Below, one piece after another: positions 9,517-54,069 of a DNA stretch of 64,000 nt (the first letter of the stretch is position 1; each line of letters starts with the position of its first letter). The notes beneath the pieces were generated by a model. That model had not been told where the DNA came from. It did not search any database and saw only the letters and a program-made list of their open reading frames with translations. This DNA is from an uncultured Alphaproteobacteria bacterium (GTDB lineage: Bacteria; Pseudomonadota; Alphaproteobacteria; JALCBB01), in the NCBI GenBank assembly GCA_958267355.1, contig OY279575.1, positions 1,246,295 through 1,310,294 on the forward strand, read 5' to 3'. The position numbers and the translations under genes were made by a program.

Positions 9517-10593
9517 ATGGGTAGGCACGCGGTGGGCGGTTCTGAGATTACTCTAGCGATTGATGCGATGGGCGGAGCGCATGCGCCGCCTGTTGCTGTG
9601 CGGGGTGCGACTTTGGCGTTGCAGGATCATCCGCGTTTGCGCTTTCTGCTGTTCGGAGATGAACAGGCTTTGGCGCATGAGCTTAAGCGTAAGGGCAATG
9701 CGGCGTTGCGCTCGGTTGCGGAAATTTGCCATGCCCCTGATAGGGTGGCTGATGATGATAAGCCTTCGGCGGCGGTGCGGCGTGGACGCGAGTCATCTAT
9801 GTGGCTGGCTTTGCAGGCGGTTGGAGAAAAGCGGGCGATTGCTGCGGTTTCGGGTGGCAATACGGGGGCTTTTATGGCGATGGCGCGTTTGAACCTGAAG
9901 CCGATGGAAGGTGTGCATCGTCCTGCGATTGCATCTTTTTTGCCGAGTGCTAAGGGGCCAATTGTTTTGCTTGACCTTGGAGCGACTGTGCAATGTTCGG
10001 CACGGAATTTGGTTGAATTTGCGATTATGGGTACGGCGTTTGCGCATTCGGTTTTGGACAAGGAAAATCCGACTTGTGCTTTGTTGAATGTTGGCGAGGA
10101 AGATGTAAAGGGACACGAAGAATTGCGCGAAGCGGCGCGGTTGATGCAGAATGTGGAGATTTCGGGTGCGTTTATTGGTTTCGTTGAAGGACACGATATT
10201 GCGCAAGGTGGTGCGGATGTGATTGTCACCGATGGGTTTACGGGCAACATAGCTCTCAAGACTGCTGAAGGGGCGGTTAATTTACTGAATGATACTTTGC
10301 GGCAAAGGCTTAAGGCTTCGCCTTTGTCTAGGCTTGGGGCTTTGCTGGTGGGTCCGTCGTTGAAGCGTGGTTTGTCGCGTTATGATCCGCGGCACCACAA
10401 CGGAGCTGTATTTCTGGGGCTAGATGGCTTGGCAATCAAAAGCCACGGACGCATGGACGAAATCGGCTTTGCGCGGGCGATTGAAGTTGCGGCGGCTTTG
10501 TCGGAGCATGATTTTCTGCACCAAGTTCAGGATGCAATTGCCCGCCAACCAGACCAAGCCACGGCGCAATCTGAATCTTCTGTACCTGCTTAG
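9517..10593 (+). CDS. plsX: phosphate acyltransferase PlsX
   Basis: ITLAIDAMGGAHAP...GGNTGAFMAMA...VVTDGFTGNIALKT; 358 aa. Confidence 0.93.
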   Translation: MGRHAVGGSEITLAIDAMGGAHAPPVAVRGATLALQDHPRLRFLLFGDEQALAHELKRKGNAALRSVAEICHAPDRVADDDKPSAAVRRGRESSMWLALQAVGEKRAIAAVSGGNTGAFMAMARLNLKPMEGVHRPAIASFLPSAKGPIVLLDLGATVQCSARNLVEFAIMGTAFAHSVLDKENPTCALLNVGEEDVKGHEELREAARLMQNVEISGAFIGFVEGHDIAQGGADVIVTDGFTGNIALKTAEGAVNLLNDTLRQRLKASPLSRLGALLVGPSLKRGLSRYDPRHHNGAVFLGLDGLAIKSHGRMDEIGFARAIEVAAALSEHDFLHQVQDAIARQPDQATAQSESSVPA

Positions 10594-10699
10594 AGACTTG
10601 CCGAGCCTTAGAGACTTGCCGAGCTTTGTACGGATATTTTTACTGAATCGCTATACAATCGGTTCGTCAAACCGCTTTACAATTGCTTTACAAACGCTT

Positions 10700-11023: not shown

Positions 11024-12034
11024 ATGAGCGGCACGGCAACAAAAGCAAGCGACGGAGCAAAACGGCTTGTTCCGTGTGGCTGGGGGCATTACCTGCCCGA
11101 GAAAGTGCTGACCAACGCTGAGCTTTCGCAAGCCTTGGACACATCAGACGAATGGATTCGCCAACGCACGGGAATACGCCAACGGCATATTGTCGCGGAT
11201 GATGAAAGCACTTTGACTCTTGCTGAGCGGGCGAGCCGCCAGGCGTTGGCGCATGCGGGTTGGCGTGCGAGTGAAGTTGATTTGGTGTTGGTTGCGACGG
11301 CGACTCCTGATATGACATTTCCGTCTGTGTCGTGTCTTTTGCAGGAAGCCTTGGGATGCAGGCCTGGTGGAGCGGCATTTGACATTCAAGCGGCGTGTTC
11401 GGGTTTCATATACGGACTTAGCGTTGCTGACGCGCTTGCTAAAAGCGGAGACTTTGCGAAGATTTTGCTGGTGGGTTCTGAGACTTTCAGCCGCATATTG
11501 GATTGGCAAGATCGCCGTACGGCGGTGTTGTTTGGCGATGGGGCGGGTGCTGTTGCCTGTGAAGTTCGCGGTGGGGCTACGGCGGGTTCTGGTGGTGCGG
11601 GCGTGTTATCTACGCATTTGTTTGCTGATGGCAAGCATGCGCAGGCGTTGCGTTCGTCGGGAGGGATTTCGCTGACGCGCACGGCGGGTGTGGTGGAGAT
11701 GGACGGGCGTGAAGTTTATCGTCATGCGGTTGTGCGTATGGCGGAAGCGATTGAAGTGGCTTTGTCGGCGCACGGCTTGACTTCGGCGGATATTGATTGG
11801 TTTGTGCCGCATCAGGCGAACTTGCGTTTGATGGAGACGATGGCGGAGCGGTTGCATTTACCACGCGAGCAGATGTTGAGTCCTGTTGAGCGGCACGCGA
11901 ATACTTCGGCGGCGTCTATTCCCTTGGCGATATCGGAAGCGGCGGCGGAGGGAAAGTTTAAGTCTGGTGATTTGCTGTTGCTGGAAGCTTTGGGGGCGGG
12001 CTTTACTTGGGGGTCTGCACTGCTTAGATGGTAG
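11024..12034 (+). CDS. fabH: 3-oxoacyl-ACP synthase III FabH
   Basis: GWGHYLPEKVLTNAEL...AACSGFIYGL...GAGFTWGSALLRW; 336 aa. Confidence 0.93.
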   Translation: MSGTATKASDGAKRLVPCGWGHYLPEKVLTNAELSQALDTSDEWIRQRTGIRQRHIVADDESTLTLAERASRQALAHAGWRASEVDLVLVATATPDMTFPSVSCLLQEALGCRPGGAAFDIQAACSGFIYGLSVADALAKSGDFAKILLVGSETFSRILDWQDRRTAVLFGDGAGAVACEVRGGATAGSGGAGVLSTHLFADGKHAQALRSSGGISLTRTAGVVEMDGREVYRHAVVRMAEAIEVALSAHGLTSADIDWFVPHQANLRLMETMAERLHLPREQMLSPVERHANTSAASIPLAISEAAAEGKFKSGDLLLLEALGAGFTWGSALLRW

Positions 12035-12273
12035 TTGTGGTGGGTGTGGTGGTACTTGTGGCGGTAGGTGTTGTCTTGGCTGTTGTGGCACGAGCTGGTG
12101 CGGAACATTTAGCGCAATGAACTGCTTGGAGAATAAAAGTTTGCGGAATTAATTGTTTTAATTGTTGGGCTATGAAATGCCTTGAAATGGGTTTGCGTCC
12201 GTGCAATACTACGGGTCTGACGAACGGATGCACCTTAGGTGATGTTTTTGGAGGAAAAGGGGGGTATAGTTTT

Positions 12274-12618
12274 ATGAGCAATTCGCTCACGCGCAAAGAC
12301 ATCTATGAAAAGGTGCGCGAGCAAGTTGGCTTGCCCTATGCGGAGTCGCATCGTTTATTGGATCAGATGTTTGTGATTGTCCGCGAGGGATTGAAACGCG
12401 GCGAAGATATTAAGATTGCGCGGTTTGGAGTTTTTGCGGTGCATCACAAGAAGGCGCGGATTGGACGTAATCCGAAGACGAAGCGTGAAGTGATGATTAG
12501 CGAACGTTATTCTATAAGTTTTCGTGCATCGGGATTGTTGAAGGAGCGGATACGCCACGCTAACCAACAAGCCACTCAACGAGCTAACCAACAAGCCAAT
12601 CGGAAGCAGGAGCCTTGA
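12274..12618 (+). CDS. ihfA: integration host factor subunit alpha
   Basis: MSNSLTRKDIYEKV...IARFGVFAVHHKKARIGRNPKTKREV; C-terminus carries the ANQQATQRANQQAN repeat; the ORF upstream extension (12172) is not homologous. Confidence 0.85.
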   Translation: MSNSLTRKDIYEKVREQVGLPYAESHRLLDQMFVIVREGLKRGEDIKIARFGVFAVHHKKARIGRNPKTKREVMISERYSISFRASGLLKERIRHANQQATQRANQQANRKQEP

Positions 12619-12621
12619 GCT

Positions 12622-13584
12622 ATGGTGGCTTCTTCTGCTGGACGGGCTACTGCTTTGCCGACGGGGGCGGAGGAATCGCCTGAATCCCCTGAAATTGGCG
12701 GTGGGCTTGGCGGAAAGGCGCAAGAAACTGCGGAAAAACCTGCGGACAAGCCACAAGAAAAGTCGCAAATTGGGCAAGACGCGCAAGAAGGGCAGGAATT
12801 GGCGGAAAATTCTGGCTTATCTGCGGCTTCTTCGGTGGAAGCGGCTTTCGGGCAGGACAGTAGCCAGACCCGCAAGCAGACCCACAAGCAGACAGGCGAT
12901 GAGGCAAGCGAGCGGGCAAGGGGGCAGGTAAGCCCCCAAACAGGCTCTCACGGAGCCACAGGTGCCACTGGAGCGGTTTTTTCTGGTTCTGGTGCTATTC
13001 CCCCCTCTAGCCCTGTTCTTGCCGCTGTGGAGCCACCAGAAGCCGCTCCAGATGGGGGAATCGCCTTAGGGGCAGGGACTACTTCGCAAGTTGTGGCTTT
13101 TCCTGTGCGCGAGCCAGCGGCACAGCCCATTCCACAGCCCAGCACTCCGCCTACCCCACAGAACAGCACCCAGCCCGCCCCACAGCCTAGCGAGCTAGCC
13201 AAGGGAATTCCTGTTTCGCCTGTTGGTGTTAAACCTGCGAAGGCTTCTTTGACGAAGATTCAGAGCAAGGATGCACTGCGGGGTATTCGTGAAGCGGCGC
13301 AAGAAATTGGCGTGGAGCCGCATGTCTTGCGTTTTTGGGAGACTCGTTTTTCGGCTTTGAAGCCGATTAAGCATGCTGGCGGCAGGCGACTCTATCGTCC
13401 GCAAGATATGGAGCTTTTGCGCCGTATTTATGCTTTGTTGCGCGAAGATGGTATGACCATCAAGGGAGCGGCAAAAGTGATTGGCAATCGTGCTGGACGT
13501 GCTGAGGCAAAAAACGACAGCTTGCGCATCCGCGCCAACGAGATCTTGCACATCGCCGACGAGCTAGAATCCCTATTTAAGTAG
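12622..13584 (+). CDS. MerR family transcriptional regulator, with a ~220-aa Pro/Ala/Gln-rich N-terminal region of uncertain translation
   Basis: C-terminal IREAAQEIGVEPHVLRFWETRFSALKPIKHAGGRRLYRPQDMELLRRIYALLREDGMTIKGAA is a MerR-type HTH; the ihfA-merR adjacency is conserved; a TTG near 13240 is an alternative start. Confidence 0.6.
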   Translation: MVASSAGRATALPTGAEESPESPEIGGGLGGKAQETAEKPADKPQEKSQIGQDAQEGQELAENSGLSAASSVEAAFGQDSSQTRKQTHKQTGDEASERARGQVSPQTGSHGATGATGAVFSGSGAIPPSSPVLAAVEPPEAAPDGGIALGAGTTSQVVAFPVREPAAQPIPQPSTPPTPQNSTQPAPQPSELAKGIPVSPVGVKPAKASLTKIQSKDALRGIREAAQEIGVEPHVLRFWETRFSALKPIKHAGGRRLYRPQDMELLRRIYALLREDGMTIKGAAKVIGNRAGRAEAKNDSLRIRANEILHIADELESLFK

Positions 13585-14021
13585 CACCTTGCCTGAAACA
13601 AAGTCAGGGTTAGGCTCTACTTCCCCGTCTTTGTCTTACTGGTGGGTTAAGCCTTTATAGGGCTTCGTCTCAAAGTTAATCTGTGCCTTCCCCATCTTTA
13701 CAGTACCCTGATTTCTGAGCCGCAAAAAAATGGGTTGGGGTTAGGCTTTACTTCAACATTTAATTTACGCACCCTTGCGGGTGCTTTTGCTCGCGCAAGC
13801 GCGAGCGTCCGCTTCGCTACGCTCGTTTCACTCCGCTACGCTCGCGCTCGTGCGCTACGCGCACTCGGTGGGTCTTCATCTCCATAACGGGAGCCAGTTA
13901 ATCCCACTAATCTTACGCTCCCCCCGTTAGGGGCTTCGGCTCAATTAACCCGTCACTAAAACTATGGGGCTTAACAGCTGGTGGGAGCAACAAGGCCTGG
14001 CACGAATGCCCCACCGCAAGG
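13585..14021 (+). repeat. composite dispersed element (modules C+A) running from the merR stop codon to the tRNA-Pro 3' end
   Basis: related copies at 38035-38365, 34283-34620 (rc), 52145-53391 (rc/mosaic), 31167-31645, 36377-36850 and 46346-46762 (rc). Confidence 0.85.
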
Positions 14022-14098
14022 TGGTCGGAGCGGCGGGATTTGAACCCACGACCTCCTGCGCCCCATGCAGGCGCGCTACCAAGCTGCGCTACGCTCCG
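14022..14098 (-). tRNA. tRNA-Pro (GGG)
   Basis: rc gives cggagcg-ta-gcgcagcttggtagcgc-g-cctgc-aTGGGGc-gcagg-aggtc-gtgggttcaaatcccgc-cgctccg-a-CCA; cloverleaf with anticodon GGG, G37, CCA encoded. Confidence 0.85.
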
Positions 14099-14149
14099 AG
14101 AGAGGGGGAATTTTTGGGGAGGGAATTTTGGGCGAAGTATTTGGGGTGC

Positions 14150-14320
14150 GGTATTGGGGCGGGGTGGAGTTTATAGCGGGATAGCGTGGGGTGTATAGCG
14201 GGGCGGAGCGGAGTTGAGTCTATAGCGGGATAGCGTGGGGTGTATAGCGGGACGGGGTGGAGTTTATAGCGGGATGGCGTGGGGGTATAGCGGGGTGGAG
14301 TGGAGTGTATAGCCTTTGTG
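14150..14320. repeat. tandem repeat, ~44-bp unit (gcgggatagcgtggggtgtatagcggg...) ~4 copies
   Basis: direct reading. Confidence 0.8.
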
Positions 14321-14393
14321 GGTTTTCTACTAGGCGAGTTGGGGGAAGCTAGGCTGATTTGCGGTAGTGGGGGTTAGGCTTTGCGGACAGGCT

Positions 14394-15458
14394 TTAGGCT
14401 TTGCGGGCTTGGCTGAAGCCTGCAAGGTAGCTGGAAACATTTTCGCCGATATTTTCTATGTCGTATCCGCCTTCTAGTATGAAGACAGTGGGTAGGTTGA
14501 GCTGGGCGATCATACGTCCTGCTTCTAGGTAGTCTTCTTGGGTTAGGCGGAAGAAAGACAGCGGGTCGTTGTGGAAGGTATCTACACCGAGTGAGACGAC
14601 TAAGGCTTCGGCTCCGTAGTCTGTGTAGTAGCGGCAGGCTTGGTTGAGTCCTTCTTGCCACAGGTTCCATCCCGTGCCGGGCGGGTAGGGAAAGTTTAGG
14701 TTAAAGCCTTCGCCGACTCCTGAGCCGCGTTCGTCGGCGTAGCCTAGAAAGTTGGGGAAGGTGTGTTCGGGGTCTCCGTGGAGTGAAATGTAATAGACAT
14801 CTTTGCGGTCGTAGAAGATTTCCTGTGTGCCGTTGCCGTGGTGGAAGTCTACATCTAGCACGGCGACTCGTTCGGCTCCTGCGTGGATGAAGTCTTGGGC
14901 GGCGATGGCAGCGTTATTTAAGAAGCAGTATCCGCCGTATTGGTTTTTTGATGCGTGGTGACCAGGCGGACGACACAAGCCGAAGGCGGCTCCTAATCCG
15001 TTGCGTACGGCGGCGGTTGCGGTCAGGGCGGTTTGTGCCGCCCAGTAAGCCGCTTGCCAGGTGCCTTCTTGGATTGTGGTTTCGGCGGCAAGAGCGTAAT
15101 AGCCGACTCGTCCTTCTAGGTCGTGAGCGGGGGGTACGGTGCGTCCTGGCATGGAGCGCGAAGGCCAGACTGAAGGCACAACATCGTTTTTGTTGCCAGC
15201 GGCGTTCCAGGCTTGCCAGATGGTGCGTAGGAACTCCACATAGTCGGAGTCGTGTATGGCGAGAATCATCTCACTGCCGAAGTCATCAGGCTTGTGCAGG
15301 TCATCGGGCTTGCACAGGGTTCCGCCGCCGAAGGAGAGCAATCCTTCGCGGACTGCTTCGGCGCGTTGTGGGATTTCCACAGGGGCGCGGAAGCCGCCGC
15401 CAGCCAGCTCGTTGGCAGGTGCGTGCAGGGCGTGTTTTTCGGAAAAAACTGTCAGCAT
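14394..15458 (-). CDS. histone deacetylase-family amidohydrolase (AcuC/HDAC-like)
   Basis: VLDVDFHHGNGTQEIFY...YISLHGDP...FILEGGY motifs of the arginase/deacetylase fold. Confidence 0.85.
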   Translation of the reverse strand: MLTVFSEKHALHAPANELAGGGFRAPVEIPQRAEAVREGLLSFGGGTLCKPDDLHKPDDFGSEMILAIHDSDYVEFLRTIWQAWNAAGNKNDVVPSVWPSRSMPGRTVPPAHDLEGRVGYYALAAETTIQEGTWQAAYWAAQTALTATAAVRNGLGAAFGLCRPPGHHASKNQYGGYCFLNNAAIAAQDFIHAGAERVAVLDVDFHHGNGTQEIFYDRKDVYYISLHGDPEHTFPNFLGYADERGSGVGEGFNLNFPYPPGTGWNLWQEGLNQACRYYTDYGAEALVVSLGVDTFHNDPLSFFRLTQEDYLEAGRMIAQLNLPTVFILEGGYDIENIGENVSSYLAGFSQARKA

Positions 15459-15874: not shown

Positions 15875-15947
15875 GTCCCCTTCGTCTAGAGGCCTAGGAC
15901 ACCGCCCTCTCACGGCGGCAACAGGGGTTCGAATCCCCTAGGGGACG
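15875..15947 (+). tRNA. tRNA-Glu (CTC)
   Basis: gtccccttcgtctagaggcctaggacaccgccctCTCacggcggcaacaggggttcgaatcccctaggggacg; near-identical to E. coli tRNA-Glu but with anticodon CTC. Confidence 0.85.
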
Positions 15948-15949
15948 CA

Positions 15950-16205
15950 ATACACCCTAGACGCACCTAAGCCACTCCCTAGATGCACCCTAAACGCACC
16001 TAAGCCACACCTAAGCCACACCCAAGCCACACTTTAAGCCCCACCCAAGCCACACCCAAGCCAAAGTACAAGCACTTTTTTCAAGCCTTTTTTCTGCCCC
16101 ATCTTGCTAAGCTCTAACCCTTGCTACGACTTAACCCTTGCTACGCCCTATCCTTGCTACGACTTAACTCTTGCTACAACTTAACCCTTGCTACGACTTA
16201 ACTCT
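15950..16205. repeat. two adjacent tandem repeats (cacctaagccacac units, then cccttgctacgacttaac 18-bp x5)
   Basis: direct reading. Confidence 0.8.
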
Positions 16206-25988: not shown

Positions 25989-26095
25989 CTTTGGGCTAAT
26001 CCTTTCCTAACCGATTAGCCTTCTTCGGGCTAATCCTTTCCTAACCGATTAGCTTTCTTTGGACTAACCCTTTCCTTACAGGTTAGCTTTCTTCA
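25985..26095. repeat. tandem repeat, ~47-bp unit (gggctaatcctttcctaaccgattagc...) x3
   Basis: direct reading. Confidence 0.8.
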
Positions 26096-29302: not shown

Positions 29303-31166
29303 TATGAACGACAGTTTGACTGAGACTTTATCTCCTGACACTGAAATTGACGGCGGAGAGAAATTCGCTGACCTTTTGAAAGAACATCAAATCACGGCGA
29401 CGGACGAGAGCTTAGAAGGCTCGGTCTTGCGTGGGCGGGTTGTGGCGTTTGATGGTGATTATGTTGTTGTGGATGTGGGCTTGAAGTCCGAGGGGCGAAT
29501 TCACGCGCATGAGTTTAAGCGTGAGGGAGAGCTTGAGGGTTTGAAGAAAGACGATATTGTTGAGGTATATCTTGACCGTTTAGAAGACTCGCAGGGGATT
29601 GTTGTTTTGTCGCGTGAGAAGGCGCGGCGTGAAGAGGCGTGGGCGCGTTTGGTGGATGTATATAACGCGGGCACTCCTGTTGAGGGAATTATTCAAAATC
29701 GGGTCAAGGGGGGGTATGTTGTGGATTTGAAGGGTGCGACGGGTTTTTTGCCGTCGAGTCAGGTTGATATTCGTCCGCAATCCAACATTACGCATTTGAT
29801 GGGTTCGCCCCAGCGGTTTAAGATTCTGAAGATGGACAGGAACCGTGGCAATCTTGTGGTTTCGCGGCGTTCGGTTTTGGAAGAAGAGCGGTCTGCGATG
29901 TTAGAAGACACGATGTCGCGGATTAAGGAAGGTGAAATTTTTACGGGCATTGTTAAGAATGTTACTGAATACGGAGCCTTTGTGGATTTGGGTGGTGTTG
30001 ATGGTTTATTGCATGTGACTGACATATCGTGGCAGCGGGTGAATCACCCGTCTGAGCATTTGCGGGTTGGACAGCAGGTTACGGTACAGATTACGCGTTA
30101 CAATCCTGAGACTCATCGTTTAAGCTTGGGTATGAAGCAGCTGGAAGCGGATCCGTGGCAGGGTACGGTGGAGCGTTTTCCTGTTGGTACGAAGCTGAAG
30201 GGGCGGGTTTCTAACATTACTGATTACGGGGCTTTTGTACAGCTGGAGCCGGGCATTGAGGGTTTGGTGCATATATCGGAGATGAGCTGGTCGCAGCGTA
30301 ATGTTCATCCGCGCAAGCTGGTATCGGTGAGTCAAGAAGTGGATGTGGTGGTCTTAGACATTGATGAAAAGCGGCGGCGGGTTTCGTTGGGTATGAAGCA
30401 GGCTTTACCGAATCCGTGGAATGAATTTGCCGAGCGTCATCCGACGGGAAGCGAAGTTACGGGCAAGGTGAAGAACATAACGAACTTTGGTTTGTTTATT
30501 GAGTTGGAGGAAGGTGTTGATGGGATGGTGCATTTTGCTGACTTGTCGTGGGACAAGCCTGGCGAAGAAGTCATCAAGGAATACCACCGCGGACAACAGG
30601 TTACTGCCAAGGTGACCAATGTGGATAGTGATCGCTGTCGTATATCGTTATCCATTAAGCACTTGACGGAAGATCCGTTTGAAGACGGAGATGAAAAGCA
30701 CAAGATTGGAGCGACAGTGACCTGTACGATTTCGTCGGTCTTTAGCGGCGGCGTGGAAGTCACGCTCGGAGACGAGAAGACTCCAGGGGTTATTAAAAAA
30801 GCCGAGTTGTCGCGTGAGCGTGATGGACAAGACCCCAATCAGTTTGCGGCGGGTGAGAAGGTGGATGCGAAGATTGTTTCGCGTGATAAGAAGGCGCGGC
30901 GTTTTGTTTTGTCTATTAAGCAGTTGCAGATTGAAGAAGCCGAGCAGGCGGTGGCGGATTACGGCTCTACCGAGTCGGGAGCGCAGCTGGGCGAGATTTT
31001 GGGTGCATCCAAGCTGGCGGCTCTAGCTCCGACAGGAGACGACACCGCCAAAGCCCCCAGCGAAGCCCCTGATGAAGCTCCTGTGGCTGATGACTCCCCC
31101 GAGCCCACAGACGCGCCCACAGAGCCAACAGACGAGCCCACAGAAGCCCCCAAAGAAGCCCAGTAG
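29303..31166 (+). CDS. rpsA: 30S ribosomal protein S1 with an acidic Pro/Thr/Glu-rich C-terminal extension
   Basis: repeated S1 domains (GSVLRGRVVAFDGDYVVVDVGLKSEGRIHAHEF..., GTKLKGRVSNITDYGAFVQLEPGIEGLVHISEMSW...); start at MNDSLTE rather than the 29136 ORF start. Confidence 0.92.
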
Positions 31167-31645
31167 CCCCCTTGCGGGGGAGCATTCATGCCAAGTCTTA
31201 GGAAACCAAGCAAGGCTTGGCTTCATAGCTTCCAGCACAGGCTAATTGTGTCTAAGCACCTTGCGGTGCGGCGATAGTGCCTAGCGTTAACTCTCTAATC
31301 TGCCCACGGACTTCATAGTTTTAGCCAAGGGCTAATTGTGTCTAAGCACCTTGCGGTGCGGCGATAGTGCCTAGCGTTAACTCTCTAATCTGCCCACGGA
31401 CTTCATAGTTTTAGCCAAGGGCTAATTGTGTCTAAGCACCTTGCGGTGCGGCGATAGTGCCTAGCGTTAACTCTCTAATCTGCCCACGGGCTTCATAGTT
31501 TTAGCCAAGGGCTAATTGTATCTAAAGGTCTTGCAGGGGGCTTCGGCTCAATTAGCCCTTCATTGAAACTATGGGGCTTAACAGTTGGTGGAAGCAAAAA
31601 GGGCTGGCACGAATGCCCCGCCGCAAGGCGGGGAAACCCGCAGAA
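31167..31645 (+). repeat. dispersed element copy: A-module fragment + ~80-bp B-module x3.5 + A-module, between rpsA and ihfB
   Basis: begins one base after the rpsA stop codon; B unit cttcatagttttagccaagggctaattgtgtctaagcaccttgcggtgcggcgatagtgcctagcgttaactctctaatctgcccacgg. Confidence 0.85.
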
Positions 31646-34281: not shown

Positions 34282-34282
34282 C

Positions 34283-34620
34283 CGCCTTGCGGCGGGGCAT
34301 TCATGCCAACCCTTGTTGCTTCCACCAACCGCCCCGCCCCATAGTTTCCAGTAAAAGGTTAATTGAGCCGAAGCCCCCTACGGGGGGAGCGTAAGATTAG
34401 GGGGATTAACTGGCTCCCGTTATGGAGATGAAGACCCACCGAGTGCCCGTAGGGCACGAAACCACCCCCCCTAACTGCCAAAGCTGTCTCCTGCACCCGT
34501 GCTGGACGCACGGGGCAGTCGCCCGCTTTGGTTTCCTGTTAACACCCCCTAGAGGCGAGACGTGGCGAAGCTTGCCGAGCCGTGCAAAAAGGCGGCGCAA
34601 GCGGGCGTAATAAACAATTG
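34283..34620 (-). repeat. dispersed element copy (rc orientation: A-module + C-module variant) between ahcY and the SSADH gene
   Basis: rc matches 13800-14021 (gagccagttaatccc...ggcttcggctcaatta...aactatgggg); begins 2 nt after the ahcY stop. Confidence 0.85.
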
Positions 34621-34626
34621 CAGGAT

Positions 34627-36090
34627 TTACAATCCCGCAAATTGGACGTATTTGGTTTCGGTGAATTCGTCCATGCCTTGGTGGGAGCCTTCGCGGCCTA
34701 AGCCCGACTCTTTGTAGCCGCCAAAGGGGGCGACTTCAGTTGTCATCACGCCCGCGTTCAGTGAGACCATTCCTGACTCTAGGGTTTCGCTAACGCGAAA
34801 GGCGCGGGCAAGGTCTTGGGTGAAGGCGTAAGCGGCGAGTCCGAATTCGGTGTCGTTCGCCATCGCCACGCCTTCGGCTTCGGTCGCAAACCGCACCACA
34901 GGAGCCACAGGACCAAACGTTTCTTCGCAAGCAAATTCCATCTTGGTGTTGGCGTTGGCAATCACTGTTGGCATATGAAAGCAGCCGCCTAAGGTGCCTT
35001 GGTCTCCGCCGCAGAGAATTTCTCCGCCCAAGGACTTAGCGTTTTCTACTTGGCGCAGTACTTTTTCTACCGCCGCTTGATTAATCAACGGACCCTGCTG
35101 CATGCCTTCTGTGAGTCCGTTGCCGACTTTGATCTGTGCCGCCTGCTCGGCAAGTCCGCTGATGTAGGAGTCGTAAATCTTGTCTTGAACAAAAATACGG
35201 TTCGGACAGATGCAAGTTTGTCCGCCGTTGCGAAACTTGCTTTGCATCGTGCCTGTTATCGCTGTCTCTAGGTCAGCATCGTCAAAGACCAACAAGGGCG
35301 CATTGCCGCCTAACTCCATCGCGGTTTTTTTGACTGTGCTGGCACATTGGCGCATTAACTCCTTGCCCACCGCTGTTGAACCCGTAAAGGAAAAAGCCCG
35401 TATCCGCGCATCTTCGGTCAAGACCTTGCCAACTTCGCCCGCCCGCTTGCTCGGGACAATGTTAAACACACCCGCAGGAATGCCCGCTTCGTCCGCCAAG
35501 ACCGCCAAAGCCAAAGCCGATAGCGGAGTCTCCGCCGCTGGCTTCGCCACCAGAGAGCAACCACTGCCCAAAATCGCCGCCGCCTTGCGCGTCAGCATCG
35601 CCGACGGAAAGTTCCACGGCGTTATCACGCCCACAGGGCCAATAGACTGACGAAACACCAACAGACGCGCATCGGGGCGGTGGCTCGGAATCACATCTCC
35701 GTAGATGCGTCTGCCTTCTTCTGCACCCCACTCTATATAGGCAGCACTCAACGCCGTTTCTAAGCGCGCTTCCGCCAAGACCTTGCCGTTTTCCAAAGTC
35801 ATAATGCGGGCTAAGTCTTCTTGATGCTGAAGTATCAAACCCGCCCAACGGCGCATTAACACACTGCGCTCTTTGGCGGTCAGGCGGCTCCAGCTGTGCC
35901 AAGCTTCAGTCGCCGCCGATACCGCGGCTTCTGTGTCGCTTGCGCCCAGATCTGCGACTTCCGCCAAGGTTTCACCCGTGGCAGGATTTTTGACCGCAAA
36001 GCGTGCGTCTCCTGCCCGCCACTTGCCGCCCAGATAGCCGCTGGTTGGGGCTAGCTCTGCCCTGTCTAAGATTTCTAAGCCTTGCCCCAT
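34627..36090 (-). CDS. gabD: NAD(P)-dependent succinate-semialdehyde dehydrogenase
   Basis: aldehyde dehydrogenase family with ELGGNAP and GQTCICPNRIFVQ motifs and a GabD-like N-terminus (ILDRAELAPTSGYLGGKW); start at the internal ATG 36090, the longer ORF N-terminus is not homologous. Confidence 0.8.
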   Translation of the reverse strand: MGQGLEILDRAELAPTSGYLGGKWRAGDARFAVKNPATGETLAEVADLGASDTEAAVSAATEAWHSWSRLTAKERSVLMRRWAGLILQHQEDLARIMTLENGKVLAEARLETALSAAYIEWGAEEGRRIYGDVIPSHRPDARLLVFRQSIGPVGVITPWNFPSAMLTRKAAAILGSGCSLVAKPAAETPLSALALAVLADEAGIPAGVFNIVPSKRAGEVGKVLTEDARIRAFSFTGSTAVGKELMRQCASTVKKTAMELGGNAPLLVFDDADLETAITGTMQSKFRNGGQTCICPNRIFVQDKIYDSYISGLAEQAAQIKVGNGLTEGMQQGPLINQAAVEKVLRQVENAKSLGGEILCGGDQGTLGGCFHMPTVIANANTKMEFACEETFGPVAPVVRFATEAEGVAMANDTEFGLAAYAFTQDLARAFRVSETLESGMVSLNAGVMTTEVAPFGGYKESGLGREGSHQGMDEFTETKYVQFAGL

Positions 36091-36202
36091 GGGGAGTCTC
36101 CTTGCCTTGATATTTGGTTCTTGCACTCCGTCGTTGAGAGGTATAGCATAAGGCAAAAGCTCCGCTTTGTCGCTAGACAAGGCCCACAACCCAAAAGGAG
36201 GC

Positions 36203-36376
36203 ACCATGACTTCAGAAGTACACCTCGCCGCTTTACGCCGCAAACACAGCGGATTAGAAGAAAAGATCACCCTAGAAACGCAACGTCCGCAGCCTGATAC
36301 AGTACTTTTGAGCGAACTGAAAAAACAAAAACTGGTTATCAAAGAAGAAATAGAAAAGCTCTCCGCTTCTGCGTAA
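36203..36376 (+). CDS. DUF465 (YdcH-like) small protein
   Basis: MTSEVHLAALRRKHSGLEEKI...LSELKKQKLVIKEEIEKL is the typical DUF465 pattern. Confidence 0.6.
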   Translation, partial: TMTSEVHLAALRRKHSGLEEKITLETQRPQPDTVLLSELKKQKLVIKEEIEKLSASA

Positions 36377-36850
36377 GCTCCGCCGCCGCCCCGCCAGGCG
36401 GCTTTTTTAATTGACGCCAAGGTGCTTTGGCTCAATTAGCCCTTCCGTTGAAACTATGGGGCTTAACGGCTGGTGGGGGAGCTAAGGGCTGGCACAGATG
36501 CCCCGCCGCAAGGTGCTTGGCTCAATTAGCCTGTTAGCAAAACTATGGGGCTTAACAGTTGGTGGGGGAGCTAAGGGCTGGCATGAATGCCGCACCGCAA
36601 GGTGCTTGGCTTCATAGCTTCCAGCACAGGCTAATTGTGTCTAAGCACCTTGCGGTGCGGCGATAGTGCCTAGCGTTAACTCTCTAATCTGCCCACGGGC
36701 TTCATAGTTTTAGCCAAGGGCTAATTGTGTCTAAAGGTCTTATAGGGGGCTTCGGCTCAATTGGCCTGTTAGCAAAACTATGGGGCTTAACGGCTGGTGG
36801 GAGAGTTAAGGGCTGGCACGAATGCTCCACCGCAAGGTGCCGGTGGTGAA
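36377..36850 (+). repeat. cluster of dispersed-element modules (A x3, B x2)
   Basis: ggcttcggctcaatt...aactatggggcttaacggctggtgg...ggctggcacgaatgc...caccgcaaggtg reiterated; the last ~45 bp overlap the 3' end of the TPR ORF on the opposite strand. Confidence 0.85.
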
Positions 36851-37903
36851 GTGTTTCCAGGCGATGCGGATGAAGCGCCAGGCGGCGGTGAGGTAACTTT
36901 TCTCCTCGTAGGACAAGATTGCCAAGCCGACATAGATGCGTATTTGTCCTGCTTTGTCTTCCATGGATTGGTAGAGCGTCAAGGATTGGTTGTACCACTC
37001 TTCGGCGCTCCCGAAGTCGCCGCGTTTGACGGAAATATTACCGAGATGGTTATAGACCGTTGCGAGTCCGATTTGTTGTTCTTGGTCGTTGACGGACTCG
37101 TATTGCTCAATTGCGCGGTCGTAGAAGGAAATGGCACGCGACCACTCGCGGCGGATTTGCGCAATCTCGCCAAGATGGCTGTAGCTGGAGGCTAATCCGA
37201 GGCGATTGTTTAGGTCTTCGCTCAGTGCTAGGGCTTGTTCGTAGAAGCTATGGGCTTCGTTTAGGTCCTTGTTGATCTGTCCTTGGCTGCCGAATTTTCT
37301 GTAAATTTTGGCGGCTCCGTCTGCACCGCCAATGATATCTTTGCTGGCGAGGTATCCGTAGAAGTAGCGCGAGATTTTGCCGATGGCGTTTTGCACGCCG
37401 CGGGCGACGGCGACATATCCGAGGGCATTGTAGGTGTGGATGAGTCCTGCTGTATCGCCCAGCGACTCGCGGACGGTGAGCGATTGTTTGTACCAGTCGC
37501 TCGCGGATTCAAAATCGCCGCGCAGTTGGGCGATGTTGCCGAGGTTATGGTAGGTGTCGGCGACTCCGTGTTGGTCTCCGAGGTGTTTGCGGGTAGCGAG
37601 CGAGTCGTTGTAGTAGGTTTCGGCTTTGTCTAGGTCTCCTTTATTGGCGGCGAGTGCTCCGAGATTATTGTAGGTGGCGGCGCGGATGCGCAAGTTTTCT
37701 TCGTCCTGCAGGAGTTCTAAGATTTGCAGGTAGCTATCGCGAGCTTTGTTTGGCTTGTTCTCCTCGCGGAATTCGCGGGCGGCTTGGAACAGCTCGTCTA
37801 TGGTTTGCGGCTTCTCCTGCGCCTGTGCTGGACTTGCCAACACAAGTCCTGTGCTTAGAAGCAAACAGAAAAACGAACAAGCGATCTTTTGGACGCGGTG
37901 CAT
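36806..37903 (-). CDS. secreted TPR-repeat protein
   Basis: signal peptide MHRVQKIACSFFCLLLSTGLVLASPAQA; ~7 TPR units (YNNLGALAANKGDLDKAETYY...); the C-terminal ~15 codons are encoded by the repeat element. Confidence 0.65.
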   Translation of the reverse strand: MHRVQKIACSFFCLLLSTGLVLASPAQAQEKPQTIDELFQAAREFREENKPNKARDSYLQILELLQDEENLRIRAATYNNLGALAANKGDLDKAETYYNDSLATRKHLGDQHGVADTYHNLGNIAQLRGDFESASDWYKQSLTVRESLGDTAGLIHTYNALGYVAVARGVQNAIGKISRYFYGYLASKDIIGGADGAAKIYRKFGSQGQINKDLNEAHSFYEQALALSEDLNNRLGLASSYSHLGEIAQIRREWSRAISFYDRAIEQYESVNDQEQQIGLATVYNHLGNISVKRGDFGSAEEWYNQSLTLYQSMEDKAGQIRIYVGLAILSYEEKSYLTAAWRFIRIAWKHFTTGTLRWSIRASP

Positions 37904-38034: not shown

Positions 38035-38365
38035 TTGTCTTCCAATTACCCTGATTTCTAAGCCGCAGAAAAAGAGGTTAGGCTTGGGCTCTACTTCAAC
38101 ATTTAATTTACGCCCGCTTGCGCGGGCTCTTGCCGCCTACGGCGGCGTCCGCTTCGCTCCGCTCGTTTCACTCCGCTACGCTCGCGCTCGTGCCCTACGG
38201 GCACTCGGTGGGTCTTCGTCTCCACAATAGGAGCCAGATCATCACACTAACCTCACGCTCCCCCCGCAAGGGGGCTTCGGCTCAATTGGCCTGTTAGCAA
38301 AACTATGGGGCTTAACAGCTGGTGGAAGCAACAAGGCTTGGCACGAATGCCGCACCGCAAGGTGC
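38035..38365 (+). repeat. dispersed element copy (C+A modules) between the TPR gene and etfA
   Basis: near-colinear with 13700-14021; ends (…caccgcaaggtg) 2 nt before the etfA stop codon on the opposite strand. Confidence 0.85.
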
Positions 38366-38366
38366 G

Positions 38367-39317
38367 CTAGGGGTCTAGGGCTTTGGATAGGGCGGGGAGG
38401 GCTTCGAATAGGTCAGCGACTAGGCCGTAGTCGGCGACTTGGAAGATCGGTGCATCAGGGTCGTTGTTAATCGCCGCTATTACTTTTGAGTCTTTCATTC
38501 CCGCCAAGTGTTGAATCGCACCCGATATGCCCACCGCAATATATAAATCAGGAGCCACCACCTTGCCCGTCTGTCCCACCTGATATTCGTTGGGAACATA
38601 GCCAGCATCCACCGCCGCTCGCGACGCACCCACCGCCGCTCCAAGCTTGTCAGCCACCGATTCAAGTAAGGCAAAGTGCTCGCCGCTTTGCATACCGCGT
38701 CCGCCCGAGATGACAATGCGAGCGTTCGTTAGCTCGGGGCGTTCGCTCTTGGAAACTTCGTCCGCCGTCCAAGACGACAAGTCCGACTCTCCTGCCTGAC
38801 CCGCCTGACTCGCCACTTCTTCTAAAGTCGCACTTCCGCCTTCGCTCGCCACCGCTTCAAACGAAGTCGCACGTACCGTCAGCAGCTTTTTCGCATCCCT
38901 TGAGCGCACCGTCGCCAAAGCATTCCCCGCATACAACGGACGAACAAAAGTATCCGCCGCAACAATTTCTAACACCTCGGTTATCGGTTGCACATCAAGC
39001 AATGCCGCCACACGCGGAAGCAAGTTCTTCGCAAAACTCCCCACAGGCGCAAGAACTGCATCGTAGTCCGCCGCTAACTCAGCAACAAACGGAGCCGCCG
39101 CTTCAGCACTCGCATGCTGCCAAGACTCCGCACAGACAAGCCGCACCTTCGCCACACCCATAACCCGTGCCGCCAAATCAGCAACCGCTCTGGATGACTC
39201 ACCTCCCATAACCAACAAATCACAAGTCGCGGCAAACTTGCCCGCCGCCGCCACTGCACTCAAAGTCGCGGGCTTTAAAGACTCTCCGTCGTGGTCTGCC
39301 AATACCAATACGCGCAT
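38367..39317 (-). CDS. etfA: electron transfer flavoprotein alpha subunit
   Basis: [11 protein letters not shown]...C-terminal FAD-binding block [37 protein letters not shown]. Confidence 0.92.
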
Positions 39318-40146: not shown

Positions 40147-40470
40147 GCCCAAAATTTGTTCGTAAAACCCGCTTGAAAACCGCTTTGAAACCTGCAGTGA
40201 AACCCGCGTTGAAAACTTCCGCTGAAAACTCCACCGAAACCCGTGCTGGAAAATCGCGGTGCAACTCGGCTATTTACAGCCTTTTTATCGCCGATGCAAT
40301 CCTGCCTGTCTGGGGGCGTAGTTCTATCTGTCTGGTGGTAAGTCCCTGCCCGTCTAGTGGTGTAGCTCTAAGCGTCTAGTGGTGTATTTCTAGCTGTCTG
40401 GGGGTAAGTCCCTAGCCGTCTAGTGGCGTAGTTCTAGCTGTCTGGGGTAAGCCCCTAGCCGTCTGGTGGC
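40147..40470. repeat. two tandem repeats (15-bp gaaaaccgctttgaa-like x6; ~33-bp gtctagtggtgtagctctagc x5)
   Basis: direct reading. Confidence 0.8.
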
Positions 40471-42503: not shown

Positions 42504-42504
42504 C

Positions 42505-42575
42505 TTTTACTGCCAACTCAGAAGATTAGCTTTTACTGCCAACTCAGAAGATTAGCTTTTACTCTTCTTGCCAAT
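42505..42575. repeat. tandem repeat, 26-bp unit (ccaactcagaagattagcttttactg) x3
   Basis: direct reading. Confidence 0.8.
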
Positions 42576-43754: not shown

Positions 43755-43915
43755 GGTTTTTTGGCTTGTTGTTTTTTAGCTTGTTATTTTTAGGTTTGGA
43801 GTTTTTGGGCTTAGTGTTTTTGGGCTTGGAGTTTTTGGGCTTGATGTTTTTGGGCTTAGTGTTTTTGGGCTTAGTGTTTTTGGGTTTAGTGTTTTCAAGC
43901 TTGGTGCGTATAAGT
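43755..43915. repeat. tandem repeat, 15-bp unit (gtttttgggcttagt) x~10
   Basis: direct reading. Confidence 0.85.
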
Positions 43916-46345: not shown

Positions 46346-46762
46346 CACCTTGCGGTGGCACCTTGCGGTGCGGCATTCGTGCCAAGCCTTGGCTCTTCCA
46401 CCAGCCGTTAAGCCCCATAGTTTCAATAAGGGGTTAATTGAGCCAAAGCCCCCTGCAAGACCTTTAGACACAATTAGCCTGTGCTGAAAGCTATGAAGCC
46501 AAGCCTTGCTTGGTTTCCTAACACTTGGCATGAATGCTCCCCCGCAAGGGGGCTTGCGGTGCGGCATCAATGCCAGGCGTTAACCCTCTAATCTGCTTAA
46601 AAGCCCCATAGTTTCAAACATAGGCTACTTGTGTTTAAGCACCTTACAGGGGGCTAGACAAAATTAGCCTGTCCCTAAAACTATGAAGCCAAACCTTGCT
46701 TGGTTTCCTAACACTTGGCATGAATGCTCCCCCGCAAGGGGGCTTGCGGGGGTGCATCGGTG
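46346..46762 (-). repeat. cluster of dispersed-element modules in rc orientation (A x3, B x2); inverted partner of 36377-36850
   Basis: rc of 46441-46505 matches 36600-36760; begins right after the 45914..46345 stop and ends at the stop of the cold-shock gene. Confidence 0.85.
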
Positions 46763-52144: not shown

Positions 52145-53391
52145 ATACTGAGACGAAGCTTGGGAGAAGTAGCGGCTTGCCCTTTCCCAACCTTAGAGAC
52201 GAAGACCCACCGAGTGGCGTAGCCACGAGCGCGAGCGGAGTGGAGCGTTAGCGAACGGAGCGAAGCGGACGCCGTGAAGCGTCTTGCGCGTAGCGCACCG
52301 CTTCACGGCACTAGGCGGCGTAAGCCGCCGTAACTTAAACAGTAAGAGAAAGACTAGCCCTGACCTTTTCTTTTACGGACTAGGAATTAGGGTTCTGTAA
52401 AGACGGGGAAGGCGCGACTTGCCCTTTCCTACCTTTGAGACGAAGACCCACCGAGTGGCGTAGCCACGAGCGCGAGCGGAGTGGAGCGTTAGCGAACGGA
52501 GCGAAGCGGACGCCGTGAAGCGTCTTGCGCGTAGCGCACCGCTTCACGGCACTAGGCGGCGTAAGCCGCCGTAACTTAAACAGTAAGAGAAAGACTAGCC
52601 CTGACCTTTTCTTTTACGGACTAGGAATTAGGGTTCTGTAAAGACGGGGAAGGCGCGTCTTGCCCTTTCCTACCTTTGAGACGAAGACCCACCGAGTGCC
52701 CCGCGTGGCGAAGCTTGCCGAGCCACGCCAACGCGTCCGTTAGGACGCACAAAAAAGAGGCACGAGCGCGAGCGTAGCGGGCACCTTGCGGTGCGTCCGC
52801 CTTGCGGCGGGGCATTCGTGCCAAATGTTATACCCCCACCAGCCGTTAAGCCCCATAGTTTCAATGGGGGGGCTAATTGAGCCGAAGCCCCATTGAGTGT
52901 CTACAGGGCGAATTTATTTTTTACCCTTTTATTTTTTCTCTCTAACAGGGGGATATTAATAATTTACCCCCCTAGGGGCGCGAGTGAGCGTAGCGAACGA
53001 GCGGGCAAAGGGGGGTCAAGCTCACAAGCCCGTAGGGCGTAGTGAGCTTGGGGGGGATGGGTGGGAACGCGCCACAAGGGTGCGTAAATTAAATGTTGAA
53101 GTAGAGCCTAACCCCAACCCATTTTTCTACGGCTCAGAAATCAGGGTAATTAGAAGACAGGGAAAAGGCACAGCCCAACCTTAGAGACGAAGACGGGGGA
53201 TACGCGGCTTGCCCCGCAGGGCTTGCCCTGCGGGGTTCGCGCGAATTTAGCGCGAACCGCGGGAGCGTAAGGGTGGTGGGACTGCCCACAGGCGCAGGTG
53301 GTCTTGCGTCTCGCGCCCTTTAGGGCGCGGGTAGCAAGCCAGATGCGCCCAAAGCACGCGCAAGCGTGCGTAAAAACTCTCCACCGCAAGG
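52145..53391 (-). repeat. amplified array of dispersed-element modules (C module ~240 bp x~2.5 in rc, A module rc, further C-like segments) from the DUF192 stop to the tRNA-Pro(TGG) 3' end
   Basis: 52200-52440 and 52440-52680 near-identical; 52800-52890 is rc of the A module; ends …ccaccgcaaggtg abutting the tRNA. Confidence 0.85.
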
Positions 53392-53468
53392 TGGTCGGGG
53401 CGACTGGGTTCGAACCAGTGACCTCCTGCTCCCAAAGCAGGCGCGCTACCAGGCTGCGCCACGCCCCG
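53392..53468 (-). tRNA. tRNA-Pro (TGG)
   Basis: rc: cggggcg-tg-gcgcagcctggtagcgc-g-cctgc-tTTGGGa-gcagg-aggtc-actggttcgaacccagt-cgccccg-a-CCA; anticodon UGG, G37. Confidence 0.85.
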
Positions 53469-53862: not shown

Positions 53863-53994
53863 TTCTTTTTAAGCAAAGTTTTTAAGCTGGGCTTTCAGCC
53901 TGCGCTTTTTCTGTTTGCTAAAACTTCTGCTCATTTGTCTGTTTATCTGTTCGTGTCGTACGACACGTACTATAGCTTCCAATTATTCAAACCG

Positions 53995-54069
53995 CGCGCT
54001 CGGGAGGACTCGAACCTCCGACCTAGTGCTTAGAAGGCACTCGCTCTAATCCAGCTGAGCTACGAGCGC
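53995..54069 (-). tRNA. tRNA-Arg (TCT)
   Basis: rc: gcgctcg-ta-gctcagctggattagagc-g-agtgc-cTTCTAa-gcact-aggtc-ggaggttcgagtcctcc-cgagcgc-g; anticodon UCU; CCA not encoded. Confidence 0.85.

Follow-up and report, generated by a model that had tools for sequence, protein, structure and literature searches.

Why do intergenic repeats begin or end at the very last nucleotide of a gene? The question is posed by the spacer between merR and a tRNA-Pro(GGG) gene, which is filled by a 439-bp composite of repeats with a half hairpin as its outer end (Table 1), and by a first-pass annotation according to which such elements meet stop codons and tRNA 3' ends exactly at several other genes as well. We followed this up in the window, i.e., the whole stretch of 64,000 nt, which belongs to a 1.86-Mb circular hifiasm contig (ENA assembly ERZ19433661). 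Its AhcY, HDAC, and HrcA proteins place the organism in Alphaproteobacteria, with best named relatives of Rhodospirillales type (54-79% identity). The window contains 55 genes, all of them housekeeping genes (Pfam confirms MerR, the six S1 domains of rpsA, AdoHcyase, ETF-alpha, and 2xCSD), and intergenic DNA accounts for 22% of its length (13,954 bases).

Relatives for comparison come from the same sample and comprise same-species strains and the sister species B, C, and D. The same-species set consists of five contigs (L066-L070, three of them circular) with an identical HDAC protein, L069 being the window's own genome; a further contig, L076, has a nucleotide identity of ~97.5% to the window species. 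Species B is 95% identical to the window species in AhcY and 77% in HDAC, and the AhcY proteins of species C and D are 88% and 83% identical to it, respectively. Because the same junctions were found again in independent hifiasm and hifiasm-meta contigs, they are not an assembly artefact.

Palindromic arms form a single repeat family

A profile search detected 18 copies of the repeat family in the window, the unit being an arm of ~90 nt, and 17 copies could be aligned as members of one family, in which four subtypes (A to D) are distinguished. All 17 aligned copies share hairpins hp1 and hp2 and the motifs CATAGTTT and GGCTAATTG, and the order within an arm is hp1, hp2, a variable stretch of ~30 nt, CATAGTTT, and GGCTAATTG. 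The first hairpin, hp1, has a perfect GC stem of 4-6 bp and an invariant TTGC loop (12-16 nt in total), and hp2, with the pattern GGCA-NNNN-TGCC, follows it directly. Simple pattern counts agree with this anatomy: 13 sites in the window match GGCACGAATGCCNCACCGCAAGGTG when up to three mismatches are allowed, and the terminal motif GGCACGAATGCC-N-CACCGCAAGGTG likewise has 13 occurrences, with 0 expected in both cases, and the last 12 nt of the terminal motif, CACCGCAAGGTG, have 12 exact matches against 0.02 expected. When all perfect hairpins of 4 bp with a 4-nt loop are counted, no other loop is as common as TTGC or GCAA.

The stem of hp1 varies in a compensatory manner (CACC, CCGCC, CCCCC, and CGCACC) around its constant loop, with a covariation score of 0.212 versus 0.06 in shuffled alignments, a value reached by none of 500 shuffles. 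Pairing is perfect in 10 of the 12 distinct hp1+hp2 modules and G.U pairs are absent, as is typical of DNA palindromes; an attempt to read the transcribed strand from an asymmetry between G.U and A.C gave no signal, the stems being perfect. We also considered the whole arm as a structured RNA and rejected this, as single arms fold with z scores between -2.1 and +0.8 and have no Rfam match.

Arms occur in several arrangements. Four times they form tail-to-tail dimers of ~194 bp, imperfect palindromes whose DNA folds as a long imperfect hairpin (z = -3.3 in a second dimer besides that in Table 1). Because of this tail-to-tail pairing, dimers and whole arrays alike terminate in inverted copies of hp1+hp2 (~26 nt), so that both ends of an array face outward; this terminal inverted repeat is present in dimers and arrays and absent from a single arm. 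Arms also form 90-bp tandem arrays and combine with other repeat families, such as module E, a second repeat family, into composites of 320-440 bp. Orientation is balanced in the window (nine units on the plus and eight on the minus strand), without replication-strand bias.

Hairpins lie flush with stop codons

The claim that element termini coincide with gene 3' ends is borne out at four protein-coding genes, namely rpsA, ahcY, the ORF at 45914-46345, and etfA, where hp1 lies 0 nt from the stop codon with its TTGC loop on the sense strand of the gene. The rpsA stop (31164-66) is followed by CCCCCTTGCGGGGG from 31167, the ahcY stop (34279-81) by CCGCCTTGCGGCGG from 34282, and the TAG of the ORF at 45914-46345 by CACCTTGCGGTG from 46346; the stop of etfA on the minus strand (38367-69) adjoins CGCACCGCAAGGTGCG at 38351-38366. 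Starts 1-2 nt after the stop had been proposed for merR, rpsA, ahcY, and this ORF, which holds for the last three, all at 0 nt, but not for merR, next to which there is only half a hairpin. Similarly, of two elements said to end at stops, the one at etfA does so with a true hp1 terminus, whereas the unit at the two-CSD gene is cut after hp2. The CTAG found on both sides of the array at 46346-46762 is simply provided by the two stop codons.

Table 1. Repeat elements and tRNA-Pro genes in the window (positions count from its first nucleotide)
Feature	Position	Strand	Details
Half hairpin CACCTTGCC	13585..13593	+	First base after merR stop (13582-13584): TAG directly followed by CACCTTGCC
A-type arm, ~90 nt	13933..14024	-	Right after tRNA-Pro(GGG) discriminator; nhmmer E = 7.6e-27
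Hairpins of this A-type arm	hp1 14011-14024; hp2 13999-14010	-	hp1 CCACC-TTGC-GGTGG (- strand)
tRNA-Pro(GGG)	14025..14098 (body to discriminator)	-	ARAGORN 14022-14098(-); 'CCA' at 14022-14024 = first 3 nt of hp1
Array flush after rpsA stop	31167..31633	.	
Parts of rpsA array	31167-31256; 31257-31436; 31437-31633		C arm (+); two B arms in tandem (+); B/A dimer
A arm flush after ahcY stop	34282-34372 in 34282..34459	+	Followed by first part of module E
Array between DUF465 terminator and TPR gene	36416..36839	.	
Parts of this array	36416-36424; 36421-36604; 36605-36645		Half hp1; two A arms (-); partial C tail
B/A palindromic dimer, 194 nt	36646-36839		DNA fold -47.8 kcal/mol, z = -6.9
Composite of A arm and module E	38047..38366	-	Flush with etfA stop (38367-38369)
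A arm of etfA composite	38275-38366	-	hp1 with 6-bp stem at 38351-38366
Array filling the whole spacer from the stop of ORF 45914-46345 to the 2xCSD stop	46346..46762	.	
Parts of this array	46346-46357; 46359-46552; 46553-46742		Solitary hp1; A/C dimer; D/C dimer
D unit cut after hp2	46743-46762		End of cold-shock (2xCSD) gene, no true terminus
Solitary hp1 and A arm	52781..52891	+	hp1 52781-52794, 2-nt gap, A arm 52797-52891
Solitary hp1, CCACC-TTGC-GGTGG	53381..53394	-	Starts at CCA of tRNA-Pro(TGG)
tRNA-Pro(TGG)	53395..53468 (body to discriminator)	-	ARAGORN 53392-53468(-); CCA at 53392-53394

Other boundaries are of different kinds. The TPR gene (36806-37903, minus strand) has its stop codon (36806-36808) inside the last arm of the neighboring array and reads eight codons into the element. 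The far-end hp1 of the rpsA array lies ~5 nt from an HU upstream region/promoter block conserved with species B. The elements at 52781..52891 sit in a 1.25-kb spacer made of several repeat families. Half hairpins are located at the outer ends of arrays, and a doubled hp1-hp1-hp2 arrangement occurs at 46346 and 52781, at the TPR gene end of L076, and at NDUS4 of species B.

Two candidates were set aside in the course of this analysis. The sequence ATTCTTGCGAAT at 51506, 4 nt after a stop, was rejected as an hp1, being instead the unit with which a 12-nt tandem repeat begins, and TAG was rejected as a sequence target, given that TAG accounts for 55% of the stops in the window and that the junctions away from stops lack it. 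Short tandem repeats of unrelated sequence likewise begin at stop codons or extend across them, at positions 363, 10589, 25989, 42494, and 43756.

A hairpin adjoins both tRNA-Pro discriminators

At both tRNA-Pro genes the hairpin starts right after the discriminator and overlaps the 'CCA'. The element terminus had been thought to abut the CCA end of each gene; both junctions are indeed flush, but the fixed point is the discriminator rather than CCA, because the three bases that follow the discriminator of tRNA-Pro(GGG) differ among same-species strains (CCA in the window, CGC in L066 and L067, and CCG in L068 and L070). CCA is not encoded in tRNA-Glu and tRNA-Arg, and therefore the 'CCA' of tRNA-Pro(GGG) in the window is part of hp1. 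The CCA of tRNA-Pro(TGG) is encoded in species A, B, and C.

The two genes also differ in what they carry: the expectation of an element at both is met by an arm at tRNA-Pro(GGG), but the 3' side of tRNA-Pro(TGG) has hp1 only, a 14-nt hairpin CCACCGCAAGGTGG with neither GGCACGAATGCC, nor hp2, nor an arm. Downstream of this solitary hp1 on the sense strand come AGAGTTTTTAC and another TTGC hairpin, and this hp1, with a T5 located 4 nt downstream, is the only one with a T run. The further suggestion of a tRNA-Pro flank as progenitor was rejected: the body of the unit does not resemble tRNA-Pro (z < 2.4; global alignments of A, B, and C arms with both tRNA-Pro genes gave z from -1.3 to 2.3), and neither ARAGORN nor the Rfam tRNA model detected a tRNA-like structure in the arrays. 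Only the 12-14-nt hairpin could derive from a tRNA trailer.

Flush placement exceeds chance

Considering the 27 intergenic TTGC/GCAA hairpins, 55 gene ends, and 13,954 intergenic bases of the window, at least six flush hairpins in sense orientation were observed where 0.053 are expected (Poisson P ~3e-11), and flushness is thus real and far beyond chance. The predicted enrichment at gene 3' ends also holds within the window: arrays are present in 5 of 11 convergent spacers, in 2 of 32 co-directional ones, and in none of the 11 divergent ones (Fisher P = 0.0025), and in both co-directional spacers the array adjoins the upstream stop.

An explanation that requires no property of the element itself is pure saturation, in which repeats would overwrite all unconstrained intergenic DNA without end specificity and their boundaries would trivially become gene ends. 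Several observations agree with it, as repeats detected within the window alone cover 32% of its intergenic versus 1% of its genic DNA, TRF lists 120 rows of tandem repeats, stop codons lie at the start of, or within, other arrays, and the junction at the cold-shock gene is a truncated unit. However, random truncation should leave units in any of ~90 phases, yet six of the nine gene-adjacent units show the true hp1 terminus (P ~1e-7), and solitary hp1 hairpins are located at gene ends too. Simple saturation is excluded by this phase test, and we regard pure saturation as very improbable.

Arrays turn over among strains and are absent from sister species

The profile search recovered the expected copies in same-species strains and none in the syntenic DNA of species B, C, and D. 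Both ahcY (..HYRY*) and etfA stop at the same position in every species, and no such hairpin follows these two stops in species B, C, or D, which indicates that the elements were added exactly after native stops. The comparison of orthologous loci called for by the first-pass annotation therefore yielded native stops conserved without an arm in the three sister species, but no clean empty site: the ahcY and etfA spacers of species B contain no copies, but these spacers are non-homologous over their whole length.

Among the five same-species contigs, different composites lie between the tRNA-Pro(GGG) discriminator and the merR stop, always bounded by the same two nucleotides. The composite of L068 and L070 runs in the opposite direction and shares only 77% identity, its A arm being flush with merR and not with the tRNA; a full hp1+hp2 follows merR in these strains, TAG being directly followed by CACCTTGCGGTGCGGCATTCGTGCC on the merR sense strand. 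Three different hp1 variants were found at the tRNA-Pro(GGG) position among same-species strains. Copy number changes as well, since the rpsA array has three B units in one strain and four in another, and the etfA element is a single 82-nt unit in L076 versus a composite in the window, the single unit having been left by a deletion at an AATTG microhomology.

Microhomology was also observed at other junctions. The TPR gene of L076 ends in ..ACCGGCACCTTG TAG, whereas in the window a CACCTTG microhomology is fused to hp1, by which the protein gains eight amino acids (RWSIRASP). A 69-nt indel between L066 and L067 was considered as an insertion into a hairpin loop, a reading that was rejected in favor of an indel at a CGCG microhomology. 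On a larger scale, the aldDH-DUF465 block has the opposite orientation in species B and C, and in the window an inverted pair of A arms encloses it, one at the ahcY stop and the other at the TPR stop.

Flush hairpins of other sequence exist in the sister species. Species B has a diverged homologue, a stem with a TGC triloop followed by GGCAATAATGC, which is flush at the NDUS4 stop and at both tRNA-Pro genes, so that the flush habit predates the present sequence family. In species C, which lacks the family, native hairpins adjoin both tRNA-Pro genes without a gap, one being a classical GC hairpin with TTTT behind it.

Evidence for and against a function in RNA

A role as canonical terminators, one of the functions suggested for the elements, is not supported, because no U-tract follows hp1 or hp2 (hp1 is succeeded by hp2, not by a T run), the RNA free energy of hp1 is only -3.4 to -9.2 kcal/mol, and the hairpins are absent from sister-species orthologues, including ahcY and etfA of species B. 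Likewise, neither hp1 nor hp2 was reported by a terminator scan that did report the DUF465 hairpin at 36385-36402.

A broader possibility is a selected RNA function, in which flush hairpins would protect the transcript from 3'-to-5' exonucleases, set its 3' end, or influence termination or the 3' processing of tRNA. It would fit the UUGC loop (UUGC/UUCG) on the sense strand of every adjacent gene, including the solitary hp1 at tRNA-Pro(TGG) and that at 46346, the retention of flush hairpins at both tRNA-Pro genes in species A, B, and C, although the repeats around them differ, and the persistence of junctions while array interiors turn over. REP elements, moreover, are able to stabilise upstream mRNA, and Liang, Rudd and Deutscher reportedly found in 2015 that REPs within ~15 nt of a stop codon affect translation. 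However, only ~7 of the 55 genes carry the hairpin, the ahcY and etfA orthologues of species B and C do without it, stems are weak and lack a U-tract, and a whole arm is no stabler than its shuffled versions (z as given above). Many copies lie deep in arrays in either orientation, perfect Watson-Crick stems free of G.U pairs fit maintenance at the DNA level, and the native stop codon of the TPR gene was destroyed by the element. A selected RNA role appears less likely than joining by an enzyme or by recombination, and we consider it unlikely on the whole.

Searches elsewhere and relation to known elements

A pattern scan of 185,579 species genomes in GTDB gave only 59 hits, all single chance matches, and nothing of the family was found in two scans of JGI metagenomes or in plasmids and phages. 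At the Rfam 15 gathering threshold only the four tRNAs match in the window, and a permissive scan added only sub-threshold miRNA-precursor hits, which are due to the long hairpin. No transposase, RAYT, or integrase was detected by Pfam in the 64 kb and no Y1 transposase among the ORFs of the window and the retrieved loci of relatives; a strain-specific gene of 681 aa in L076, examined as a candidate transposase, encodes a TPR protein.

The family is best described as a new, lineage-specific, palindromic intergenic mosaic repeat of the REPIN/MITE/BIME-like kind. The analogy with REP/BIME drawn by the first-pass annotation is apt with regard to mosaic arrays, alternating orientation, and hairpin ends. 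As in REP/REPIN/BIME elements of Enterobacteria, Pseudomonas, and Stenotrophomonas, the repeats are short GC-rich extragenic palindromes whose inverted doublets form long hairpins, here a palindrome of 12-16 nt and four ~194 bp tail-to-tail dimers, and they make lineage-specific mosaic or tandem clusters of alternating orientation in 3'-end spacers, with new copies beside old ones (PMC3116915, PMC3337134, PMC3686654). However, REP/REPIN elements are defined by a conserved 5' GT[A/G]G tetranucleotide next to the palindrome (PMC3686654), which is not conserved 5' of hp1: the flanks are GTAG (2), CTAG (2), CTAA, CCGA (2), CTAAG, CCAAG, GGG, and TTT, and the GTAG flanks are simply stop codons, TAG being so frequent among the stops of the window. 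The present family differs further in its short palindrome with an invariant TTGC loop, in a doublet of ~194 bp rather than ~70-110 bp, in that no RAYT was seen in the window or the retrieved loci, and in its systematic 0-nt junctions with stop codons and tRNA ends.

The elements also resemble MITEs in having terminal inverted repeats and in being small, non-coding, and multi-copy. Palindromic bacterial MITEs, such as Correia/NEMIS of Neisseria, ERIC/IRU, RUP, and the RPEs of Rickettsia, are non-coding imperfect palindromes of 100-200 bp that have ~26-nt terminal inverted repeats and occur in high copy near gene ends, and RPEs occasionally fuse into coding sequences in a way that recalls the TPR gene here. 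Correia duplicates TA on insertion. In contrast, no cognate IS was seen for the present family and no target-site duplication was found at the etfA unit of L076 (which lies between TAG and CCCATT), at the dimers, or at the rpsA array. Its extreme terminus is itself a mini-palindrome, and single arms and solitary hairpins circulate independently and make tandem arrays.

Two further comparisons may be drawn. The RIMEs (Rhizobium-specific intergenic mosaic elements) that Osteras et al. are said to have described in 1995 as palindromic modules between genes are likewise an alphaproteobacterial intergenic mosaic of palindromic modules, set beside the present family by description and with no evident relation in sequence; we know of no reports of flush placement of RIMEs at stop codons or tRNA ends. 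Integron attC hairpins begin on or close to the stop codon of their cassette gene, and group IIC introns insert just after terminator hairpins, both of which provide a precedent for structure-directed placement at 3' ends. This analogy is one of mechanism only, since here core housekeeping genes are concerned and there is no integrase, attI, intron domain, reverse transcriptase, or Rfam match.

How flush junctions may arise

The reading that we favor, and to which we give an about even chance of being right, is that the family is a MITE/REPIN/BIME-like mosaic of selfish or neutral DNA whose hairpin ends join hairpins or microhomologies at gene ends and which is bounded by selection. It builds on the anatomy, flushness, restriction to one lineage, turnover among strains, and microhomology junctions observed here. 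The hairpin ends led by hp1 would be the reactive ends of the element and might join short resident hairpins or microhomologies at gene 3' ends; recombination among copies would then remodel the arrays by tandem duplication, inversion, and deletion at microhomologies, and purifying selection would halt these events at the last functional nucleotide, be it a stop codon, a tRNA discriminator, or the next promoter. Flushness would then probably have two components, a defined reactive end and purifying selection, and the 0-nt junctions would result from both together. That selection sets the limit is suggested by the cut unit next to the cold-shock gene, by the fusion at the TPR gene, and by the boundary of the rpsA array on the promoter side. 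We infer the joining mechanism and the lack of function from such comparisons of sequences, and selfish or neutral DNA is what the elements most likely are.

Some observations sit less easily with joining by recombination under selection. An intact terminus at +1 is not obviously predicted so often, no clean filled/empty site, transposase (in the 64 kb), or target duplication was found, and an invariant loop with a covarying stem would also be expected from a function at the protein or RNA level. In addition, the three hp1 variants at tRNA-Pro(GGG) would be consistent either with selection for a hairpin there or with an event that is precise, repeated, and site-directed.

A site-directed event of this kind could be targeted transposition, in which a trans-acting enzyme (RAYT/IS200-605-like, IS110-like, or other), its gene lying outside the window, would recognise the hp1+hp2 ends and insert copies precisely at or next to terminator-type TTGC hairpins at gene 3' ends, flushness being a property of the enzyme; we consider this unlikely. 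The termini are defined and strongly phased (P ~1e-7), and an invariant loop on a covarying stem is what is seen in hairpins bound by HUH enzymes; at the identical tRNA-Pro(GGG) and merR junctions, hp1 variants and orientations differ among strains of the same species. With regard to the target, native terminators of the clade carry TTGC loops (e.g., GGCGGCTTGCGCCGCC followed by T5 at 13575 in L061), and the earlier idea of insertion at resident 3' hairpins finds some evidence in the doubled hp1-hp1-hp2, which resembles an insertion beside a resident hairpin, in the outer half hairpins, and in the native hairpins of species C. However, the searches of the window and all retrieved loci revealed no transposase, hp1 lacks a 5' GT[A/G]G (its flanks being TAG, TAA, GA, AAG, GGG, or TTT), and target duplication and replication-strand bias are likewise lacking. 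The truncated cold-shock and fused TPR junctions resemble recombination instead, and the terminator hairpin of ahcY in species C lies 30 nt from the stop, so that a resident flush target is not general.

It is also conceivable, although quite improbable, that placement senses the end of the gene product rather than a DNA motif, with copies landing repeatedly and independently at +1 of stop codons and of the tRNA discriminator. Insertion coupled to the 3'-end hairpin of a transcript or tRNA or to an R-loop, or a hairpin-guided recombinase that swaps resident hairpins, would be examples, and gene-end sensing would explain why three hp1 variants in either orientation occur at the same two nucleotides in one species.

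Implications

Within this 1.9-Mb genome the repeats drive inversion of gene blocks, gene loss, and changes of protein C-termini. At least five same-species contigs with different arrays, together with three sister species, constitute a clean natural experiment on palindromic repeats that covers their birth, shuffling, and selective bounding. Should a mechanism lie behind the flush junctions, the family would represent a bacterial mobile element with the exact 3' boundary of genes as its target, which would bear on how selfish DNA spares its host and might offer a structure-guided insertion tool.

Tandem repeats at gene ends and another repeat family

Tandem arrays make up nearly every spacer in the window (TRF, 120 rows). 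Short, unrelated tandem repeats with periods of 11-58 nt start exactly at, or include, a stop codon or the end of tRNA-Glu, and the 26-nt unit at 42494 includes the last codons of a gene together with its TAG. A separate repeat family is represented by a 241-bp unit, present in 2.2 copies at 98% identity (window 52172-52698), which includes GAGACGAAGACCCACCGAGTG and runs of GAGCG/GAAGCGGA; pieces of this unit also adjoin A arms (subtype A of the ~90-nt repeat unit) at 13700-13900 and 38050-38230. The low-complexity, acidic/proline C-terminal tail of rpsA (..PTEPTDEPTEAPKEAQ*, window 31100-31166) varies among strains (8120-8144 in L076, a strain ~97.5% identical in nucleotide sequence) and is duplicated in sister species B (L061 7716-7950).

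Coordinates of tandem repeats at gene ends and of tRNA genes in the window
Feature	Window coordinates	Encoded CCA
Tandem repeats at gene ends	363-583, 10589-10624, 25989-26094, 42494-42563, 43756-43906, 40306-40470, 15952-16063	
tRNA-Glu	15875-15948	No
tRNA-Arg	53994-54069	No

tRNA ends, stop codons and promoters

The bases following the discriminator of tRNA-Pro(GGG) (window 14022-14098) are CCA, CGC or CCG depending on the strain (window, and same-species contigs L066 and L070), and CCA is encoded in tRNA-Glu of species C (L073). Given this variation and the two window tRNAs that lack CCA, CCA encoding is evolutionarily labile in this clade.

Stop codons in the whole window comprise 24-29 TAG, 16-19 TAA and 3-5 TGA, an unusual usage given the 55% GC of the genome, and TGA avoidance or a change in RF2 could be its source. 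Usage in species B (L061, L071, and L077) resembles that of the window, that in species C (L063, L073, and L079) is balanced, and species D (L064) is rich in TGA; the ahcY stop is TAA in the window, TAG in species B, and TGA in species C and D. The palindrome CTAG lies at both edges of one array (46342-46345 and 46763-46766) and supplies the TAG stop of both convergent genes, the 45914-46345 ORF and the gene with two cold-shock domains. The two CTAG copies may be left over from a target duplication, or may be coincidental in view of the TAG bias. Between 30000 and 48000, canonical -35/-10 motifs seem depleted, with only one sigma-70-like promoter match vs 7.5 ± 2.7 in shuffled sequence.

Rearrangement and gene content at repeat-rich spacers

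Comparison with L061 15403-17183 (species B) and L063 2682-4407 (species C) reveals that the aldehyde dehydrogenase-DUF465 block (window 34627-36376) has the opposite orientation in the window. Inverted A arms bracket this block (34282 on the plus strand and 36421-36839 on the minus strand), which suggests that its inversion was repeat-mediated.

The native stop of a TPR gene (36806-37903, minus strand) is replaced by an element at 36806-36839, so that the protein ends in ..KHFTTGTLRWSIRASP in the window vs ..KHFTTGTL in L076 (16763-16807); a 7-nt microhomology, CACCTTG, marks the point where gene and element fuse. Between the aldehyde dehydrogenase gene and the composite after ahcY (an A arm plus part of a second repeat family), L076 carries an extra 2.9 kb (11592-14545) including a 681-aa TPR protein, whereas this interval is only 180 nt in the window (34460-34642). 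Repeat-rich spacers are sites where TPR gene content differs among strains.
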